Assembly: GCF_046155325.1 (NCBI RefSeq)
Contig: NZ_JBJXDQ010000003.1
Span: 4,804 to 68,803, forward strand
Reading direction: 5' to 3'
DNA from: Flavobacterium sp.
Lineage (GTDB): Bacteria; Bacteroidota; Bacteroidia; Flavobacteriales; Flavobacteriaceae
Length of the DNA: 64,000 nt
Positions 5,355-58,192 of this stretch are shown piece after piece. Position 1 is the first letter of the stretch. Each line of letters begins with the position of its first letter. The translations under genes and the position numbers were made by a program. The notes below the pieces were generated by a model, which was given only the letters and a program-made list of their open reading frames with translations, was not told where the DNA came from and did no database searches.

Positions 5355-5459
5355 TTTTTTAAGTATAAATCTTTTCAACAAATATGAAATCTGTCCCAAA
5401 ACTTCGGGATAAAATCTAAAATTATATTTTACCTTTGACTATTCAATAAAACACAAATT

Positions 5460-9532: not shown

Positions 9533-11374
9533 ATGAAATGTTTAAAAATATTTTCCCATTTTGCAATTATATGCTGCTCCTACTCAAACGCACTAGGGCA
9601 AATTACTGTAAAAGATGATAAATCAGCAGATGAGTTAGTTTCGATTTTAACTAACAATAGTCCCTGCATAATTGTTTCTCCCGCATCCGTTAAAGGAGAC
9701 ACATTTACACCTGGAAAAAATAGTTATGGTTATTTTAACAAATCAACTAGTGGCTTTCCTTTTTCGGAAGGTATTATACTTAATACCGATAGTGCAACAA
9801 ACGCAATTGGTCCCTATAATTCGGGAGATAGTGGAGGAGGAAAACCTTCTTGGTCAGGAGATACCGATTTAAATTCAATTTTAGGAATTAGCACTGTAAA
9901 CGCAACGGTATTAGAATTTGACTTTGTTCCATTAACGAATTACATTAGTTTCAACTATATATTTGCTTCAAATGAATACCAGCTCTATTTTCCTTGCTAT
10001 TATTCTGATGGATTTGCTTTTTTAATTAAGGAGAATATTTCTGGATCTACTTATAAAAATTTGGCGGTTATACCTAATTCTTTCACACCTGTATCGTCAA
10101 AAAATATTCATCCAATTATAAATGATTATAGCGATAGTACCGGTTTTTACAAAGGTTGCCCTTCAATAGCTGAAAATTATTTTAATGGGTATAATACTAA
10201 TATAAGTCCAATAAATTATAGTGGACAAACCAAAGTAATGAAAGCGACAACATCAGTTATTGCTAACCAAAGTTATCATATAAAATTAGTAATTGCAGAT
10301 GATAGAAACATTCGTTTTGACTCAGCTATTTTTATTGAAGCAGGAAGTTTTGAACCAAAAATAGACTTGGGACCAGATCAATTATTAATTACAAATAACC
10401 CTGTGTGTTTTGGAGATCCTTTTGTATTGGATACAAAATTATCCCCAACTTACACATACAAATGGTTCAAAAATGGTGATACCACCCCAATACCTGGTGA
10501 AATATATCCTACCTTAAATGTAACTGATTCAGGAACCTATTCTGCTTCAGTAGATATTGGTTCTGGGTGTATTGCTACTGGTGAAATTAAAATTGAATTC
10601 GCCCCTCTAATAGTTTTGAATCCTATTAATGAAGGTAAATGCGATGAAGATGGGTCTGGAACTGCAACTTTTGATCTAACTAAAGTGGAAACGAAAATCA
10701 AAAACCTTGATCCCAAAATAAGTACTGTAACGTTTTATGAAACTCAGGCTGGAGCTGTATTATATGACCCTATTGTAAACCCAGGCTCTTTTGTTAAAAC
10801 TTCAGTCACAGACCAAGAAATTTATTATGAAGTAAGAAGTATTTACGACTGTACTGCAGTATCGACCATAACGCTAACAACACAATCAAGTAATTTTATT
10901 CCTGGAATTGGTAAACCACCAATGGTAAACGATTTTTTGGGTAATGATAATTCAGTGGAATTAATTCCACCATCAACAGCTGGTCCTTATGAATTTTCAT
11001 TAGACGGAATTAATTATCAAGCATCTAATGTATTTACTGGTCTCTCTATTGGAAATTACACAGCTTATATAAGAGATACTATTACCTGTGAATATAGTAT
11101 TTATGAATTAACTATTCTCGATTATCCTAAATTTTTCACCCCAAATGAGGATGGATATAATGATAACTGGGAAATAAAAAACTTGGATTTATTTCCAAAA
11201 GCTATAGTTTCTATTTTTGACCGCTTTGGAAAATTAGTAGCACAAATAAATACTTTAAAAAATTCATGGGATGGTAAGCTAAATGGTATTAAATTACCCT
11301 CAGATGATTATTGGTTTTCCCTAAACTTTGGGGACGGAAAAATAGTAAAAGGTCACTTTACGTTGAAAAGATAA
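9533..11374 (+). CDS. T9SS type B sorting domain protein (choice-of-anchor L-like N-terminus)
   Basis: Signal peptide; FNYIFASNEY..YSDGFAF; C-terminal FFTPNEDGYNDNW..IFDRFGK..WDG..LPSDDYWF..KGHFTLKR. Confidence 0.85.
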   Translation: MKCLKIFSHFAIICCSYSNALGQITVKDDKSADELVSILTNNSPCIIVSPASVKGDTFTPGKNSYGYFNKSTSGFPFSEGIILNTDSATNAIGPYNSGDSGGGKPSWSGDTDLNSILGISTVNATVLEFDFVPLTNYISFNYIFASNEYQLYFPCYYSDGFAFLIKENISGSTYKNLAVIPNSFTPVSSKNIHPIINDYSDSTGFYKGCPSIAENYFNGYNTNISPINYSGQTKVMKATTSVIANQSYHIKLVIADDRNIRFDSAIFIEAGSFEPKIDLGPDQLLITNNPVCFGDPFVLDTKLSPTYTYKWFKNGDTTPIPGEIYPTLNVTDSGTYSASVDIGSGCIATGEIKIEFAPLIVLNPINEGKCDEDGSGTATFDLTKVETKIKNLDPKISTVTFYETQAGAVLYDPIVNPGSFVKTSVTDQEIYYEVRSIYDCTAVSTITLTTQSSNFIPGIGKPPMVNDFLGNDNSVELIPPSTAGPYEFSLDGINYQASNVFTGLSIGNYTAYIRDTITCEYSIYELTILDYPKFFTPNEDGYNDNWEIKNLDLFPKAIVSIFDRFGKLVAQINTLKNSWDGKLNGIKLPSDDYWFSLNFGDGKIVKGHFTLKR

Positions 11375-16972: not shown

Positions 16973-17044
16973 TAGTCCCTGGGGGAATCGAACCCCCCTT
17001 ACCAGGATGAAAACCTGGCGTCCTAACCGATAGACGAAGGGACC
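16973..17044 (-). tRNA. tRNA-Glu (TTC), CCA not encoded
   Basis: GGTCCCT/AGGGACT acceptor stem, CCAGG-TT TTC AT-CCTGG anticodon arm, GGGGG-TTCGATT-CCCCC T arm. Confidence 0.95.
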
Positions 17045-21290: not shown

Positions 21291-21384
21291 AACTGGATAT
21301 AAATATTGTAAATAGAAAGCCATTTCATTTATTGAAGTGGTTTTCCTTTTAGTGGATATTTTGAAATACTAAAAGTACTAAAAT

Positions 21385-21447
21385 AGACCCGAGTGCAGTG
21401 GAAATCCTCCCGATTTTTCTTCGGGAGATTAAAACGAAAAGCGGGAC
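21385..21447 (+). ncRNA. Probable Flavo-1-like RNA motif/repeat
   Basis: cccg..gcagtggaaatc-[ctcccga/tcgggag hairpin]-gatt..cgaaaagcggga layout matches my recollection of the Flavo-1 motif; not verified by a covariance search. Confidence 0.55.
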
Positions 21448-21537
21448 TCAACACTCTAAAAAAATACAAAGGTTTATGCTTCTAAAAATAAAAATCGTAA
21501 TTTTGCAAAATTCCCAATTTATAGGGATTATAAATCT

Positions 21538-41393: not shown

Positions 41394-43631
41394 CTACAAA
41401 ACCAATAAACCAAAATCTCTCAAAGTATTGACCGGTTTTGAATACCAAAACAATTCGAAATCATTAAAATGAATTTCAAAATCAGATTTTACTTCCTGAA
41501 ATGAATAGATTTTTGAATTTGAAACCGATATTTTCTGGAGTATTTGAACCAACCATTCTCCCTCATTTTTCGCTGTTTGAATGGTAAAGCTTTCCTTTTT
41601 GTCGTGAAAAGTCAAAGTCATCATTTCCCAACTGTTTCCTTTTTTGGACTTTGTAAAATATTCTAAAGTTGGCATTCCTCCTAGCCAAACTATTTTGGCT
41701 GTCGGTTTAATATTAAAATCTAAATCTTTAAGCAAGGCTTCAGAGATAAAATCAGGATGAATTTTGGTTTTTGGAATCTTAAAATCGAACCATTCTTGCA
41801 ATTCGTAGTCAAAACAAATTCCGTGCATAAAATTGAATAAGGATTTTTTTAAACCATAACTAAATTGATTATGATCTATTCCTGTTTCATCAACGAAGTT
41901 TATATCGTTATTAGCAAAAGTCCCAACAACTTCGGTTTCTTTCACCACGCCAAATTTCTCTGGATACATTCCCACAGGACTGTGTGCTGTCATCGCAAAT
42001 TGATGCCAGAAACCCGATTGCAAAACCCCAACTTCAAACAATTGTCGCACCATTTCGAGGCTATCTACAGTTTCCTGAACCGTTTGCGTGGGATAACCAT
42101 ACATCAAATAAGCATGAACCATGATGTTGGCTTCGGTAAAATTGCGAGTCACTTTAGCCACTTGTTCGACCGTTACGCCTTTGTCTATCAATTGTAATAA
42201 TCGGTCTGAGGCTACTTCGAGTCCTCCCGAAACGGCAATACATCCGGAAGCTTTGAGCAATAAACATAAATCTCTAGTAAAACTTTTTTCGAAACGAATG
42301 TTCGTCCACCACGTAACTGATAATTTCCTGCGCAGAATTTCTAGTGCCAACGCTTTCATTAAGGCTGGAGGTGCTGCTTCATCTACAAAATGAAAACCAT
42401 TTTCACCCGTTTGCGCTATCATCTCTTCCATTCGATCACACAAAATATTGGCGGCGATGGGCTCGTAAACCTTAATATAATCTAACGAAATATCGCAAAA
42501 AGTACATTTTCCCCAATAGCAACCGTGTGCCATCGTGAGTTTGTTCCATCGACCATCGCTCCACATTCGGTGCATGGGATTGACTATCTCAATAACCGAA
42601 ATGTATTTGTCTAATAGCAAATCTGAATAATCGGGTGTGCCAACTTGAGATTGTTTGTAATCGGATTTTAATGAATTGTTTTTATAAACTACTTTGCCGT
42701 TTTCAAGAAGGAAAGTTCTTTTAAATTGCCCTTCGACAAGCTCAGGGTGACAAACTGCATTTACGAGTAACTCCACTGGTAATTCGCCGTCATCTAAAGT
42801 AATGAAATCGAAAAACTCAAATACACGAGTGTCTGAAAGCGAACGCAATTCGGTATTAGGAAAACCACCACCCATGGCAATTTTGATATTTGGGTGGTGT
42901 TTCTTTACCCATTGAGCCGAACGAAAAGCCGCATATAAATTCCCCGGGAAAGGTACTGAAATCAGGAATAATTTGGGTTGAATGGTTTCGATTTTTTCTT
43001 TTAGAATCGATATTAAAATTACATCAATATAAGTTGGTTCTTGTTGCAGAGCTTCATACAATTCGTCGAATGAATTAGCAGAGCGACCCAATCGTTCTGC
43101 GTAGCGACTGAAACCAAAATTAGCATCGACACATTCTACAATAAAATCGGAAATGTCTTCGAGGTATAAAGTCGCTAGATGTTTGGCTTTGTCTTGCGTT
43201 CCCATCGTTCCGAAAGCCCAATCCAATTCCTCCAATTGTGCAAAACGAGAAGCTTCAGGCAAATAATCTTCCTGACAAATTTGTAATGCCAATGTTGGGT
43301 TTTTCCCCTGAAGAAATGCAATAACACTATCTATGGTTTTAATGTATTCGTCTTGGAGAGCGAGAATTCTTTGGGTGTTTATTGTTAAAATGGAACGCAT
43401 CTCGACTGCGCTCGAGGTGACACCTTCATTGTTACAAAACAAATTTTCAAGTCCTTCTTTAGAAAATAATTTCAAAATCACTTCAATGCCTAAATCAGCT
43501 TGAGTTGTCTGAATGTTTTTGGTATTCAGAAACCCTTTGATATAAGCGGTTGCTGGATACGGTGTATTCAGTTGAGTAAAGGGTGGTGTGATGAGGAATA
43601 CTTTGCTTTTCAAAGGAATTGTTTTGTGCAA
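41394..43631 (-). CDS. B12-binding domain radical SAM protein
   Basis: ITPPFTQLNTPYPA; HGCYWGKCTFC; alternative TTG start at 43613. Confidence 0.9.
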   Translation of the reverse strand: MHKTIPLKSKVFLITPPFTQLNTPYPATAYIKGFLNTKNIQTTQADLGIEVILKLFSKEGLENLFCNNEGVTSSAVEMRSILTINTQRILALQDEYIKTIDSVIAFLQGKNPTLALQICQEDYLPEASRFAQLEELDWAFGTMGTQDKAKHLATLYLEDISDFIVECVDANFGFSRYAERLGRSANSFDELYEALQQEPTYIDVILISILKEKIETIQPKLFLISVPFPGNLYAAFRSAQWVKKHHPNIKIAMGGGFPNTELRSLSDTRVFEFFDFITLDDGELPVELLVNAVCHPELVEGQFKRTFLLENGKVVYKNNSLKSDYKQSQVGTPDYSDLLLDKYISVIEIVNPMHRMWSDGRWNKLTMAHGCYWGKCTFCDISLDYIKVYEPIAANILCDRMEEMIAQTGENGFHFVDEAAPPALMKALALEILRRKLSVTWWTNIRFEKSFTRDLCLLLKASGCIAVSGGLEVASDRLLQLIDKGVTVEQVAKVTRNFTEANIMVHAYLMYGYPTQTVQETVDSLEMVRQLFEVGVLQSGFWHQFAMTAHSPVGMYPEKFGVVKETEVVGTFANNDINFVDETGIDHNQFSYGLKKSLFNFMHGICFDYELQEWFDFKIPKTKIHPDFISEALLKDLDFNIKPTAKIVWLGGMPTLEYFTKSKKGNSWEMMTLTFHDKKESFTIQTAKNEGEWLVQILQKISVSNSKIYSFQEVKSDFEIHFNDFELFWYSKPVNTLRDFGLLVL
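42729..42752 (-). repeat. TGTCA-type REP-like unit in frame inside the radical SAM gene
   Basis: tgtcaccctgagcttgtcgaaggg encodes CHPELVEG. Confidence 0.75.
43398..43422 (-). repeat. Second TGTCA-type REP-like unit in frame inside the radical SAM gene
   Basis: tgtcacctcgagcgcagtcgagatg encodes VTSSAVEM; internal ctcga/tcgag stem. Confidence 0.75.
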
Positions 43632-46224: not shown

Positions 46225-46327
46225 TTGAATGTTATAATATTTTCGATAAAAATGAGGTTATTATTTGAAAGTAGCAAATATTTAGTTCCAATAATTTTTG
46301 GTATTTTTACTCCAAATTAATCTCACT

Positions 46328-47935
46328 ATGCCAACAGACGCTATCAGCTATCAAAAATCCGGTTATTTCTCGCCTTTGATGAATGATTATTTAGACCAAA
46401 AATCTAATACAAAGTCTCTCTACAATCGGTTTCCAATTCTTGAAAATTTTGAAGCGCAAGTTCAGGAAAAAAAAGCAAATTATACCCATGAAAATAGAGC
46501 AATATTAGTATCGGTAATAGAATCACAATATGCCAAAATAAATCCTTCTACTGCTACTTTAAACAATATTAAACTTTTAAACAACTCCAATACATTCACC
46601 GTTACCACTGGTCATCAATTGAATTTATTCACAGGACCATTATATTTTTTGTATAAAATTATTTCGACTATAAATTTAACGAAGGAATTAAAATCGAAAT
46701 ACCCCAGCTTTAATTTCGTTCCCATTTATTGGATGGCGACCGAAGATCATGATTTTGAGGAAATCAATTATTTCAATTTAAAAGGTCGAAAATTTCGATG
46801 GAACACCAACAGCTCTGGAGCAGTAGGTCGCTTATCTACTAATGGATTAGACGCTTTTTTTGAAGTCTATTCTAAAGAAATTGGTTCAGGCAAAAATGCC
46901 GAGACAATCAAAACGCTTTTTAAGGAATCATATTTAAAACATTCCAATTTAGCCGATGCCACTCGTTTTCTTGCCAATGCACTTTTTGGTGAATATGGAT
47001 TGGTGATTCTTGATGCTGATAATGCCGATTTGAAACGAACTTTTATACCTTACATCAAAGAAGAATTACTACAGCAAACAGCCTATAAAAAGGTAATAGA
47101 AACCACCCGAAAATTATCAAATTACAATATTCAAGTGAATCCTCGAGAGATTAATTTATTCTATTTAGAAAACAATTTAAGGGAACGTATCTTATTTGAT
47201 CCCTATAGCAATAGGGACGGAAAATATAAAGTAAACAATACGACTATCGAATTTTCAGAAAGTGAAATTTTATCGGTACTAGAAAATCATCCCGAAAAAT
47301 TTAGCCCCAACGTAATTATGCGATCGTTGTATCAAGAAGTTATCTTACCCAATTTGTGCTACATAGGAGGTGGTGGCGAAATTGGTTATTGGTTAGAATT
47401 GAAATCTTTTTTTGATGCTGTAAAAGTATCATTTCCTATTCTTTTAGTTCGGAACTCGGCTCTATTGGTCACTGAAAAGCAAACCAAAAAAGCAGATAAA
47501 TTAGAACTGACTTGGAAAGATTTGTTCTCCAAACAAAAGGATTTGGTTAATACCAAAACAGAGCAATTATCAGAGTTCCCAATCGATTTTACATCTCAAA
47601 AAGAACTTTTGCAAAAACAATTCGAAAGACTTCATGAAATAGCCAATCAGACCGATAAATCTTTTATTGGAGCCGTAGAAGCGCAAGAAGCCAAACAAAT
47701 AAAAGGATTGGTAAATCTCGAAAAACGACTATTAAAAGCCCAAAAACGCAAGCATTCCGAAGAACTGGAAAGAATTACCGATTTGCAAAACGAATTGTTT
47801 CCAAATCAAAGTTTACAGGAACGCCAAGCCAATTTTTCGGAATTTTATAGGGAAAATGGTGAAAAGTTGATCACTACATTGATAGATCAACTGAAACCAT
47901 TAGGAAATAATTTTAATATTATTACACTTTCTTAA
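46328..47935 (+). CDS. bshC: Bacillithiol biosynthesis cysteine-adding enzyme
   Basis: TTGHQLNLFTGPLY, YWMATEDHDFEEI, FSPNV, GGGGEIGYW, LQERQANF. Confidence 0.93.
   Translation: MPTDAISYQKSGYFSPLMNDYLDQKSNTKSLYNRFPILENFEAQVQEKKANYTHENRAILVSVIESQYAKINPSTATLNNIKLLNNSNTFTVTTGHQLNLFTGPLYFLYKIISTINLTKELKSKYPSFNFVPIYWMATEDHDFEEINYFNLKGRKFRWNTNSSGAVGRLSTNGLDAFFEVYSKEIGSGKNAETIKTLFKESYLKHSNLADATRFLANALFGEYGLVILDADNADLKRTFIPYIKEELLQQTAYKKVIETTRKLSNYNIQVNPREINLFYLENNLRERILFDPYSNRDGKYKVNNTTIEFSESEILSVLENHPEKFSPNVIMRSLYQEVILPNLCYIGGGGEIGYWLELKSFFDAVKVSFPILLVRNSALLVTEKQTKKADKLELTWKDLFSKQKDLVNTKTEQLSEFPIDFTSQKELLQKQFERLHEIANQTDKSFIGAVEAQEAKQIKGLVNLEKRLLKAQKRKHSEELERITDLQNELFPNQSLQERQANFSEFYRENGEKLITTLIDQLKPLGNNFNIITLS
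47200..47217. repeat. Short hairpin in frame inside bshC
   Basis: tccctat-agca-ataggga encodes (D)PYSNRD. Confidence 0.6.
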
Positions 47936-48450: not shown

Positions 48451-48498
48451 TTTTCAGAAGGCAGATTTCAGATTTAAGATTAAAAATCTACATAACAC

Positions 48499-48542
48499 AA
48501 ATCCCGTTTAAACCCGACGCTTCGGGAGAAACGGGATTTTTT
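48499..48542. terminator. Bidirectional terminator with a cccgacgcttcggga hairpin in its loop
   Basis: aaatcccgttt/aaacgggattt outer stem; inner element at 48513-48527. Confidence 0.8.
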
Positions 48543-48582
48543 ATTTCTGAAATGCATCTGTAATCTGCTACCTGAAATCTAA

Positions 48583-57040: not shown

Positions 57041-58192
57041 TTAAATTTTGAGAATTTCGCCACGATCAAAAGAACTATTACTTCCAATGATAAAATCTGA
57101 AGTTTTTGAAGCTATTTTAAAGGTAAATTTTTTATTTTTATTCGATTCAAAATTAGCAATAATAGCCTTATAATCAATATATTTAGCGTCGAATATTACT
57201 TCTGTAGCCACTGACATTTTAATTTCATCAATAGATTTTTTGAGTGCTACTTCCTGATATAATTTTGCTTCAATTCTACTTTTAAGAACTTTATTATTTG
57301 AAATCAACAAATACTTTAGCGGTTTTGTTTGCAACTTAGTTTTTCCTTGAAACATTTTAAAAAACGAAAAAAATAGTATTCCAATTTTCATAAAGACTGA
57401 AAACAAAAAGGATCCCGAAGCGTCGGGAGTAAAATGCTTTTTATAGAAAAAATTCATCGCTTCACTAAAACGTTTCATATAAGCGCCATCTTTAATTGTG
57501 CTTTCACCTTTGTAGTGAATTATAGTTGTTTCAGGATAATAATAATTTGATTTTTCTTTTTTTAAAGCCATGTATGACAAATCAATATCGTCTGAATACA
57601 TAAAACAGTTTTCATCAAAACCTCCAATTTCAATATAAAAATCGCGTCTCATAACCATAAAAGCACCTACTAAAATAGCCGCTTTTCCAGTTGTGTTTTC
57701 AGAAAGATCTTGAGCATAATACTGATTAAATAAACTTGCTTTAGGAAATATTTTATAAAGACCGAAAATTTTCGTAAAAGCTACCCAGGGTGTTGGAATA
57801 CCGCGTTTACTTTCTGGAAGAAAATTTCCCGTTCCGTCAATAAGTTTTACCCCAACTATACCTAAATCTGATTGTTTTTTGGCGAAAGCCAATACCTTAA
57901 TAAAGGTATCTTCAGCAACAACTGTATCAGGATTTAATATACAAATAAATTCACCTTTTGCTTTTGAAACCCCAATGTTATTCCCTTTTGGAAAACCTAG
58001 ATTTTCTTTGTTTTCAATCAGAAAAACTTTAGGAAAAAGATGCTTAATCATGGCACAACTGCCATCTTGTGAATTATTATCGACTACAATAATTTCACCA
58101 TCTATGTTTTCCAATGCTTTTTGAACACTACAAACACATTGCTCTAGAAAATAGCGAACGTTATAATTAAGAATGATGACTGATAGTTGCAT
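57041..58192 (-). CDS. Glycosyltransferase family 2
   Basis: SVIILNYN, VVDNNSQDGS, LNPD, GGFDE..YSDDIDL. Confidence 0.92.
   Translation of the reverse strand: MQLSVIILNYNVRYFLEQCVCSVQKALENIDGEIIVVDNNSQDGSCAMIKHLFPKVFLIENKENLGFPKGNNIGVSKAKGEFICILNPDTVVAEDTFIKVLAFAKKQSDLGIVGVKLIDGTGNFLPESKRGIPTPWVAFTKIFGLYKIFPKASLFNQYYAQDLSENTTGKAAILVGAFMVMRRDFYIEIGGFDENCFMYSDDIDLSYMALKKEKSNYYYPETTIIHYKGESTIKDGAYMKRFSEAMNFFYKKHFTPDASGSFLFSVFMKIGILFFSFFKMFQGKTKLQTKPLKYLLISNNKVLKSRIEAKLYQEVALKKSIDEIKMSVATEVIFDAKYIDYKAIIANFESNKNKKFTFKIASKTSDFIIGSNSSFDRGEILKI
57413..57428 (-). repeat. tcccgacgcttcggga hairpin in frame inside the GT2 gene
   Basis: Encodes (T)PDASG; 15 nt identical to 48513-48527. Confidence 0.8.

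Follow-up and report, generated by a model that had tools for sequence, protein, structure and literature searches.

How does one and the same GC-rich string come to lie in the loop of a transcription terminator and, in frame, in a glycosyltransferase gene? The window analysed here, a single stretch of 64,000 nucleotides, belongs to a genome of 2.75 Mb in 202 contigs (32.8% GC), the close homologues of which are named Flavobacterium. Exact matches to the 15-mer CCCGACGCTTCGGGA occur in this window at 48513-48527 on the plus strand and at 57413-57427 on the minus strand. A preliminary description of the DNA had taken the pair as evidence that an intergenic palindrome has become protein sequence. 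The repeat itself is confirmed: in 100 dinucleotide shuffles of the window, matches with up to two mismatches numbered ~0.02 on average, and no shuffle yielded three or more. We consider it likely that the 15-mer belongs to a self-propagating micro-repeat of 16 bp, of which it forms the core; this element, probably selfish or neutral, would have spread by copying to new sites in this Flavobacterium lineage.

The palindrome in a glycosyltransferase gene and in the ndk terminator

The complete unit around the 15-mer is a palindrome of 16 nt, TCCCGA-NNNN-TCGGGA, with arms of 6 nt and a centre of 4 nt. The genic copy, TCCCGACGCTTCGGGA (57413-57428, minus strand), is found in an intact gene for a GT2-family glycosyltransferase of 383 residues (57041-58192, minus strand; Pfam PF00535 at 4.9e-23), where bases 57427-57413 are read as CCC GAC GCT TCG GGA and supply residues P257-D-A-S-G261. 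An indel against orthologues, proposed as a check on the original claim, is indeed present: 22 of 24 same-genus orthologues carry a four-residue gap exactly at PDAS. The same holds for 116 of the 120 best database homologues, which read [KR]-V-S or similar, leaving four with an insert at this codon. At the DNA level, CATTTTA[CTCCCGACGCTTCGGGA]TCC stands here against CATTTTA[AAGTT]TCC in the others, a net gain of 12 nt.

The four inserted alleles read TPDASGS (our genome), SPDASGS (P0002, 81% identical, and P0007, 74% identical) and NPDGSGS (P0101). In P0002 and P0007 the DNA of the unit is identical to that of our own copy, and, with P0004 lacking the unit between flanks that match those of P0007 at >90% identity, a near before/after pair is available. 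The relative G013 (locus L006) carries a variant with a TGGT centre, TCCCGATGGTTCGGGA, at the same codon. In the AlphaFold model of the glycosyltransferase (mean pLDDT 82.9) the insert lies in the linker between the helix 236-253 and a hydrophobic helix 263-281, with residues 258-260 below a pLDDT of 50; because this predicted inter-helix linker is of such low confidence, the site plausibly tolerates insertion. A different small insert is seen near residue 103 in the orthologues of G013 ('FVTSD-AV', L006:~2350-2380) and G014 ('FVTLSAVE', L018). It resembles a VTSSAVE unit, which suggests that this gene accepts other palindrome families at another loop.

The intergenic copy, ACCCGACGCTTCGGGA (48512-48527, plus strand), has its outermost pair broken and occupies the apical loop of a two-tier terminator hairpin 3' of ndk (48499-48545, plus strand), in which an outer stem AAAUCCCGUUU/AAACGGGAUUU and an inner stem CCCGA/UCGGG are followed by a U-run. 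The predicted RNA fold has a free energy of -21.6 kcal/mol (z = -5.3). We assign the form of an intrinsic (Rho-independent) terminator, a GC-rich hairpin leading straight into a U-run behind a gene, to this composite hairpin alone; its internal loop hides it from a simple terminator scan. The earlier reading of the site as a terminator loop was right. In 13 same-genus relatives the orthologous terminator reads AATCCCGTTTC, a loop of 6-10 nt and GAAACGGGATTTTTT, with the outer stem conserved (by compensatory changes in the sister species G004) and the inner palindrome present in none. Judged from this alignment, the ndk palindrome has been added to a terminator that already existed. Loop lengths vary among the relatives, so that the site is no test of the 12-nt rule described below for genic copies.

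Further members in the window are less perfect. The degenerate copy already listed at 5394-5409 is TCCCAAAACTTCGGGA, intergenic and with one stem mismatch; a possible further member of uncertain membership, TCCCTATAATTCGGGA (9811-9826, equivalent to C3:14614), has one stem mismatch and an AT loop, and a control pattern gave 0 matches at the same stringency. Rfam matches in the window are a Flavo-1 RNA (56.2 bits) and a tRNA, at 21381-21452 (plus strand) and 16973-17044 (minus strand), and no Rfam family covers the palindrome copies.

A repeat family with patchy distribution

The exact 15-mer is present in five copies genome-wide, four inside genes and one in the ndk terminator. The shorter pattern CCCGA-N4-TCGGG has 45 copies, compared with 0-3 for each of 13 control palindromes of the same composition. 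For the full 16-mer, 41 copies are perfect, 21 have one arm mismatch and 50 have two (reversed control: 0, 0 and 20), and the repeat flagged in the preliminary description is no two-copy coincidence, being part of a family of 41 perfect and ~50 degenerate units. Among all GC-rich hairpins with 6-bp arms, the TCCCGA/TCGGGA family ranks first with 53 copies, followed by one with 11, the median being 1. The two arms are 4 nt apart in 41 cases and 5-8 nt apart in 12, and never far apart. The consensus centre is AGCT (12 copies), with the one-step variants AACT/AGTT (8), AGCG/CGCT (4) and AGCA/TGCT (3).

By an approximate, ORF-based division, 28 of the 41 perfect copies are outside long ORFs and 13 inside (14 with the copy in IleRS). 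The unit is immediately preceded by A or G and followed by G or C, and no further flanking motif stands out. Several subgroups were noticed in passing. Copies with a CGCT/AGCG centre in our genome (n=5; C3:53315, C3:62216, C50:2688, C57:20638 and C108:880) are genic in 4/5 cases, against 1/12 for copies with an AGCT centre, a comparison of small samples; with the copies oriented as CGCT, 4/5 of them have TTTT in the 10 nt upstream, a post hoc observation. Heptamer-like repeats (cagattt / ctgaaat, often in tandem) flank intergenic copies in the window (48460-48482 and 48556-48582) and on contigs C7, C84, C86, C96, C111 and C175, and one subfamily reads AGTCCCGAAGCTTCGGGAGCAGATT. The 16-mer also forms the tip of a longer type of hairpin, (T)GTCACA(C)TGT-CCCGAA..TTCGGG-ACAGTGTGAC (C52:1302, C123:14805, C195:196, C26:8835 and C2:9693); one copy of this family is genic and adds 24 nt.

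Across 81 genomes of the genus, the motif is found 0-71 times per genome (median 7), with counts of at least 20 in 17 genomes (reversed control: 0-2). The sister species G004 has four copies and G002 has none. In 150 other genera of the Flavobacteriaceae, represented by one genome each, the same centres recur, with at least 10 copies in seven genomes (up to 32) and none in half. Every genic copy tested is absent from the sister species. Taken with the patchy counts, this absence indicates, at the level of genome comparison, that the unit is copied in bursts within lineages; ongoing mobility is read solely from differences between species. In the literature searched, the string CCCGAAGCTTCGGG was not found, nor was anything specific on REP sequences or intragenic palindromes of Flavobacterium. 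A search of IMG/VR returned 19 exact matches to the 16-mer, about the number expected by chance on a rough, uncomputed estimate for a collection of this size, and is uninformative on phage carriage.

Could the hairpin instead be a functional module kept by selection, whether as an RNA stabiliser, a terminator cap or a site for a dimeric protein, with the genic copies acting as attenuators or pause sites? Among the genome copies the arms have changed at ~7% per site and the centres at ~25%, as selection on the stem would predict, although the low arm change may equally reflect youth or hairpin-templated correction. All four inserted glycosyltransferase alleles keep every stem base, synonymous third positions included. 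The ndk copy extends its terminator to the free energy given above, and, when read on the coding strand, the glycosyltransferase unit together with the UCCUUUUUG after it resembles a terminator (hairpin plus T-run), as a consensus match only. Selection of this kind, however, leaves the arrival of an identical 16-mer at new sites unexplained, and a copying process would still be needed. It also sits poorly with the range of copy numbers among congeners and with a sister species devoid of all the genic copies. A 6-bp stem is weak as a terminator, and the copies have no consistent flank motif or T-run, the latter being associated with 24% of copies and 22% of random positions. We regard a selected module as an unlikely explanation for the family.

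In-frame copies, their footprint and their origins

At least 14 of the 45 copies lie in frame in long intact ORFs, including those for IleRS, LeuRS, UvrA and a HemF-like protein. The unit is read as P-[DE]-x-S-G in eight cases (nine with an imperfect copy in IleRS), as S-R-S-x-G in five and as P-K-L-R-x in one. A chimeric query, spliced together from the sequence surrounding twelve genic copies, found orthologues in G009 and in the sister species G004, most of them four residues shorter. In ten clearly alignable simple cases, DNA alignments with relatives show a gain of 12 nt, the 16-mer standing in place of 4 nt between well-conserved flanks; these are the genes for the GT2 glycosyltransferase, IleRS, the HemF-like protein, UvrA, a HisIE-like protein, an HD-domain protein, the protein on contig C50, a class-I/II aminotransferase and LeuRS, and the copy at C106:5876. 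The copy on C200 fits the same rule through a gapped alignment (-2/+14) with a single relative, G009, and that on C117 lies in a divergent stretch with an ambiguous gain of 9 to 12 nt. Two more complex copies add 24 nt: a nested one with doubled arms (C106:6214) and a composite one inside a longer hairpin (C123:14806).

What becomes of the target can be read from the centre of the unit. Its four bases match the four bases of the sister species at 10/36 positions, which is chance level, in flanks that are ~85% identical. Since the agreement is no better than chance, the centre would arrive with the unit and the target would lose ~4 bases; the alternative of arms added around a retained 4-nt target is not favoured by the same count. 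In most genic cases, relatives share the base that directly follows the unit on its right. A variation on this footprint is seen in BshC (46298-47935, plus strand), where an 18-nt palindrome of a related family with TCCC..GGGA arms, TCCCTATAGCAATAGGGA (window 47198-47217), is read as D-P-Y-S-N-R-D against E-----N in six relatives, an in-frame gain of 15 nt with 3 nt lost. With three bases lost at this site, the fixed 4-nt loss may partly be a matter of survivorship, in that a process removing 3-4 bases leaves in-frame products to be seen.

The same proteins contain other GC-rich inserts. Our IleRS (contig C96; L031:1620-1720) has a block reading 'PLTPKGGTGE...SPPSGESEGA', absent from the sister G004 and closely matched at the same site in G010 ('SPLTPKGGNG...SSPPLEGLGEA'); an IleRS of another genus (L044, G030) has a 5-residue insert, 'STGSGQA', exactly at the loop that carries PDDSG here. 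Our LeuRS (C145) contains 'SPLTPKGGTVE' and 'SPPSEGLGEA', and our HemF-like protein (C100) 'TPPSGAGGLS'. In a minus-strand ORF of 756 residues encoding a large radical-SAM-like protein, the units 'CHPELVEG' and 'GVTSSAVEM' lie at window 42729-42752 and 43398-43422, respectively. The stretch with the latter is 9 residues longer than in G004, while the site of the former shows no length change and reads 'AVTSSAVEK', the peptide of the other unit, in G020 and G006.

Whether the glycosyltransferase codon was struck once or several times was approached through two trees. On the protein tree, with the insert removed, three changes of state are needed. AU tests on these proteins rejected neither a single clade for three inserted alleles (p = 0.21) nor one for all four (p = 0.17), so an independent origin of all four cannot be claimed from the protein tree by itself. 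A second tree was built from the two genes that flank the glycosyltransferase gene, for an E2 component and an ABC-F protein. In it, our genome (G000) is sister to the insert-free G004 (support 100) and G013 is sister to the insert-free G006 (support 97), and a clade of G000 with G013 is rejected (AU p = 0.004), a result to be taken with caution as G013 is on a long branch. It is more parsimonious to assume two or more acquisitions or lateral transfers at this codon than one gain followed by at least six exact losses.

These results bear on an account with no transposition-like step, with the unit generated time and again at the locus itself through slippage or template switching at quasi-palindromes, or with only alleles spreading between species by homologous recombination. 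Doubled or tandem arms at three loci (C26:1353, C155:3066 and C106:6213) do resemble slippage with hairpin-templated correction, and identical inserts in non-sister glycosyltransferase alleles could reflect recombination. Yet template switching cannot produce the same 12 arm bases at >40 unrelated loci, the flanks of the inserted glycosyltransferase alleles are not recombinant with each other, and fourteen genes with the unit in one genome, against none in its sister, point to a burst within that genome. We find it hard to give local origin or allele exchange any real credence. The original interpretation is supported, with one nuance: the data show a single repeat family arriving independently at intergenic and coding sites and do not show that the genic unit derives from the ndk copy.

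Possible mobilisation of the unit and its place among known repeats

The obvious candidate for a mobiliser is the RAYT-type (Y1 HUH) transposase of ordinary REP/REPIN families, and in several respects the unit looks the part: it is a short, dispersed palindrome, extragenic for the most part and frequently placed at the 3' ends of convergent genes, and Y1_Tnp genes (PF01797) are present in many Flavobacterium genomes. Their number, however, does not track that of the unit (rho 0.24; 0.14 when counted per Mb). G018 lacks a Y1 hit despite its 51 copies, G069 (30 copies) and G051 (28 copies) likewise have none, and G060 combines 8 hits with a single copy. Our own genome has one truncated, weak hit with a stop, at a contig end. 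A RAYT/Y1 transposase was rejected as mobiliser for this lack of correlation with copy number. The unit, a perfect palindrome of 16 nt, also lacks the GTAG or CGTC tag and differs from the imperfect palindromes of 20-40 nt typical of REPs, which together make an ordinary REP/REPIN family moved by RAYT very improbable.

Other routes were tried and set aside. Ku-dependent end joining was rejected: Ku does not track copy number and is absent from our genome (G000) and from G018, G017, G068 and G069, with several genomes rich in copies among those that lack it. Targeting of hairpin loops at genic sites is not borne out by the self-complementarity of their flanks (-1.74 vs -1.69 kcal/mol at random positions, P = 0.42); loop targeting does fit the ndk terminator copy and possibly the nested copies and the three doubled-arm loci. 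The arms were not found to enclose any longer parent element. ORFs between neighbouring copies are housekeeping genes, with no pair of copies flanking a transposase-like ORF.

The picture that we favour, of a copied micro-repeat, would run as follows. Integration would be carried out in trans by some activity, or by a repair pathway that uses hairpin or duplex copies of the unit, and would remove ~4 target bases with no duplication. Insertions would fall everywhere; in genes, the survivors would be those in frame in tolerant surface loops or linkers, and copies in spacers would persist freely, for instance atop terminator hairpins. The element would most likely be selfish or neutral, and the four extra residues of the glycosyltransferase a tolerated linker extension with no adaptation involved. 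More tentatively, the unit may represent a new integration mechanism, in which its hairpin or self-duplex is joined into a break, ~4 target bases are discarded and no known transposase family takes part; we hold this to be possible and by no means probable. If true, the unit would be the smallest known mobile DNA in bacteria and would steadily supply essential enzymes throughout the Flavobacteriaceae with 4-residue loop insertions, possibly with a site preference, the same glycosyltransferase codon having been struck in two clades.

Among described systems, the Rickettsia palindromic elements (RPEs) and the intragenic REPs appear functionally closest. RPEs, likewise palindromic, have multiplied within an AT-rich bacterial genome and are found in frame in unrelated housekeeping genes, where they are translated in a manner compatible with protein folding (PMC10969869). 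The likeness lies in in-frame insertion into unrelated protein genes at sites empty in the orthologues, as is seen here. RPEs, however, measure ~100-150 bp and add 30-50 residues, compared with 16 bp and four residues for the Flavobacterium unit; RPE-1 to RPE-10 are Rickettsia families to which the Flavobacteriaceae unit, far outside their length range, has no sequence relationship, and the footprint of 12 nt gained with 4 nt lost is not described for RPEs. Intragenic REPs with GTAG/CGTC tags, with uvrA among their hosts, were documented by Di Nocera et al. 2013 (PMC3733652). REPs and REPINs resemble the present family in being short hairpins scattered over the genome, chiefly between genes that converge or share an orientation and in some cases inside ORFs, uvrA included. 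They differ from it in the tag joined to an imperfect palindrome, in place of a tagless perfect 16-mer, and in their co-occurrence with RAYTs, which is not seen here. About one third of the perfect copies of the Flavobacterium unit are genic by the approximate ORF-based division.

MITEs such as Correia and ERIC are likewise non-autonomous, dispersed inverted-repeat elements able to fuse to ORFs. They measure 50-500 bp, have terminal inverted repeats and duplicate their target sites, in contrast with a unit that is 16 bp in its entirety, has its 4-nt centre as sole internal sequence, and is associated with a target loss of ~4 nt and no duplication.

In organelles, the GC clusters of yeast mitochondria and similar elements are GC-rich palindromes that spread in AT-rich DNA and enter protein genes in frame. 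Such clusters are usually 30-60 nt long and are sometimes bypassed in translation. Hairpin repeats are also reported for placozoan and algal mtDNA (PMC7813641, PMC4524435). Set against the organellar cases, the Flavobacterium unit is distinguished by residing in the genome of a free-living bacterium and by being, apparently, translated.

We read the 16-bp palindrome, amplified and written into proteins many times, as a very small new form of the intragenic REP / RPE phenomenon. It takes that phenomenon into a free-living phylum, with a far smaller unit, and its footprint of 16 nt in and ~4 nt out, clean and unusual, constrains the mechanism. Units of this kind can mislead indel-based phylogenetic markers as well as predictions of terminators or genes. 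Short indels in conserved proteins are usually attributed to slippage; in this one genome, the four-residue insertions in IleRS, LeuRS, UvrA, the HemF-like protein, the GT2 glycosyltransferase and others come from a defined 16-bp palindrome, and elements of this sort account for the P-[DE]-x-S-G and S-R-S-x-G loops that alignments show in single lineages.
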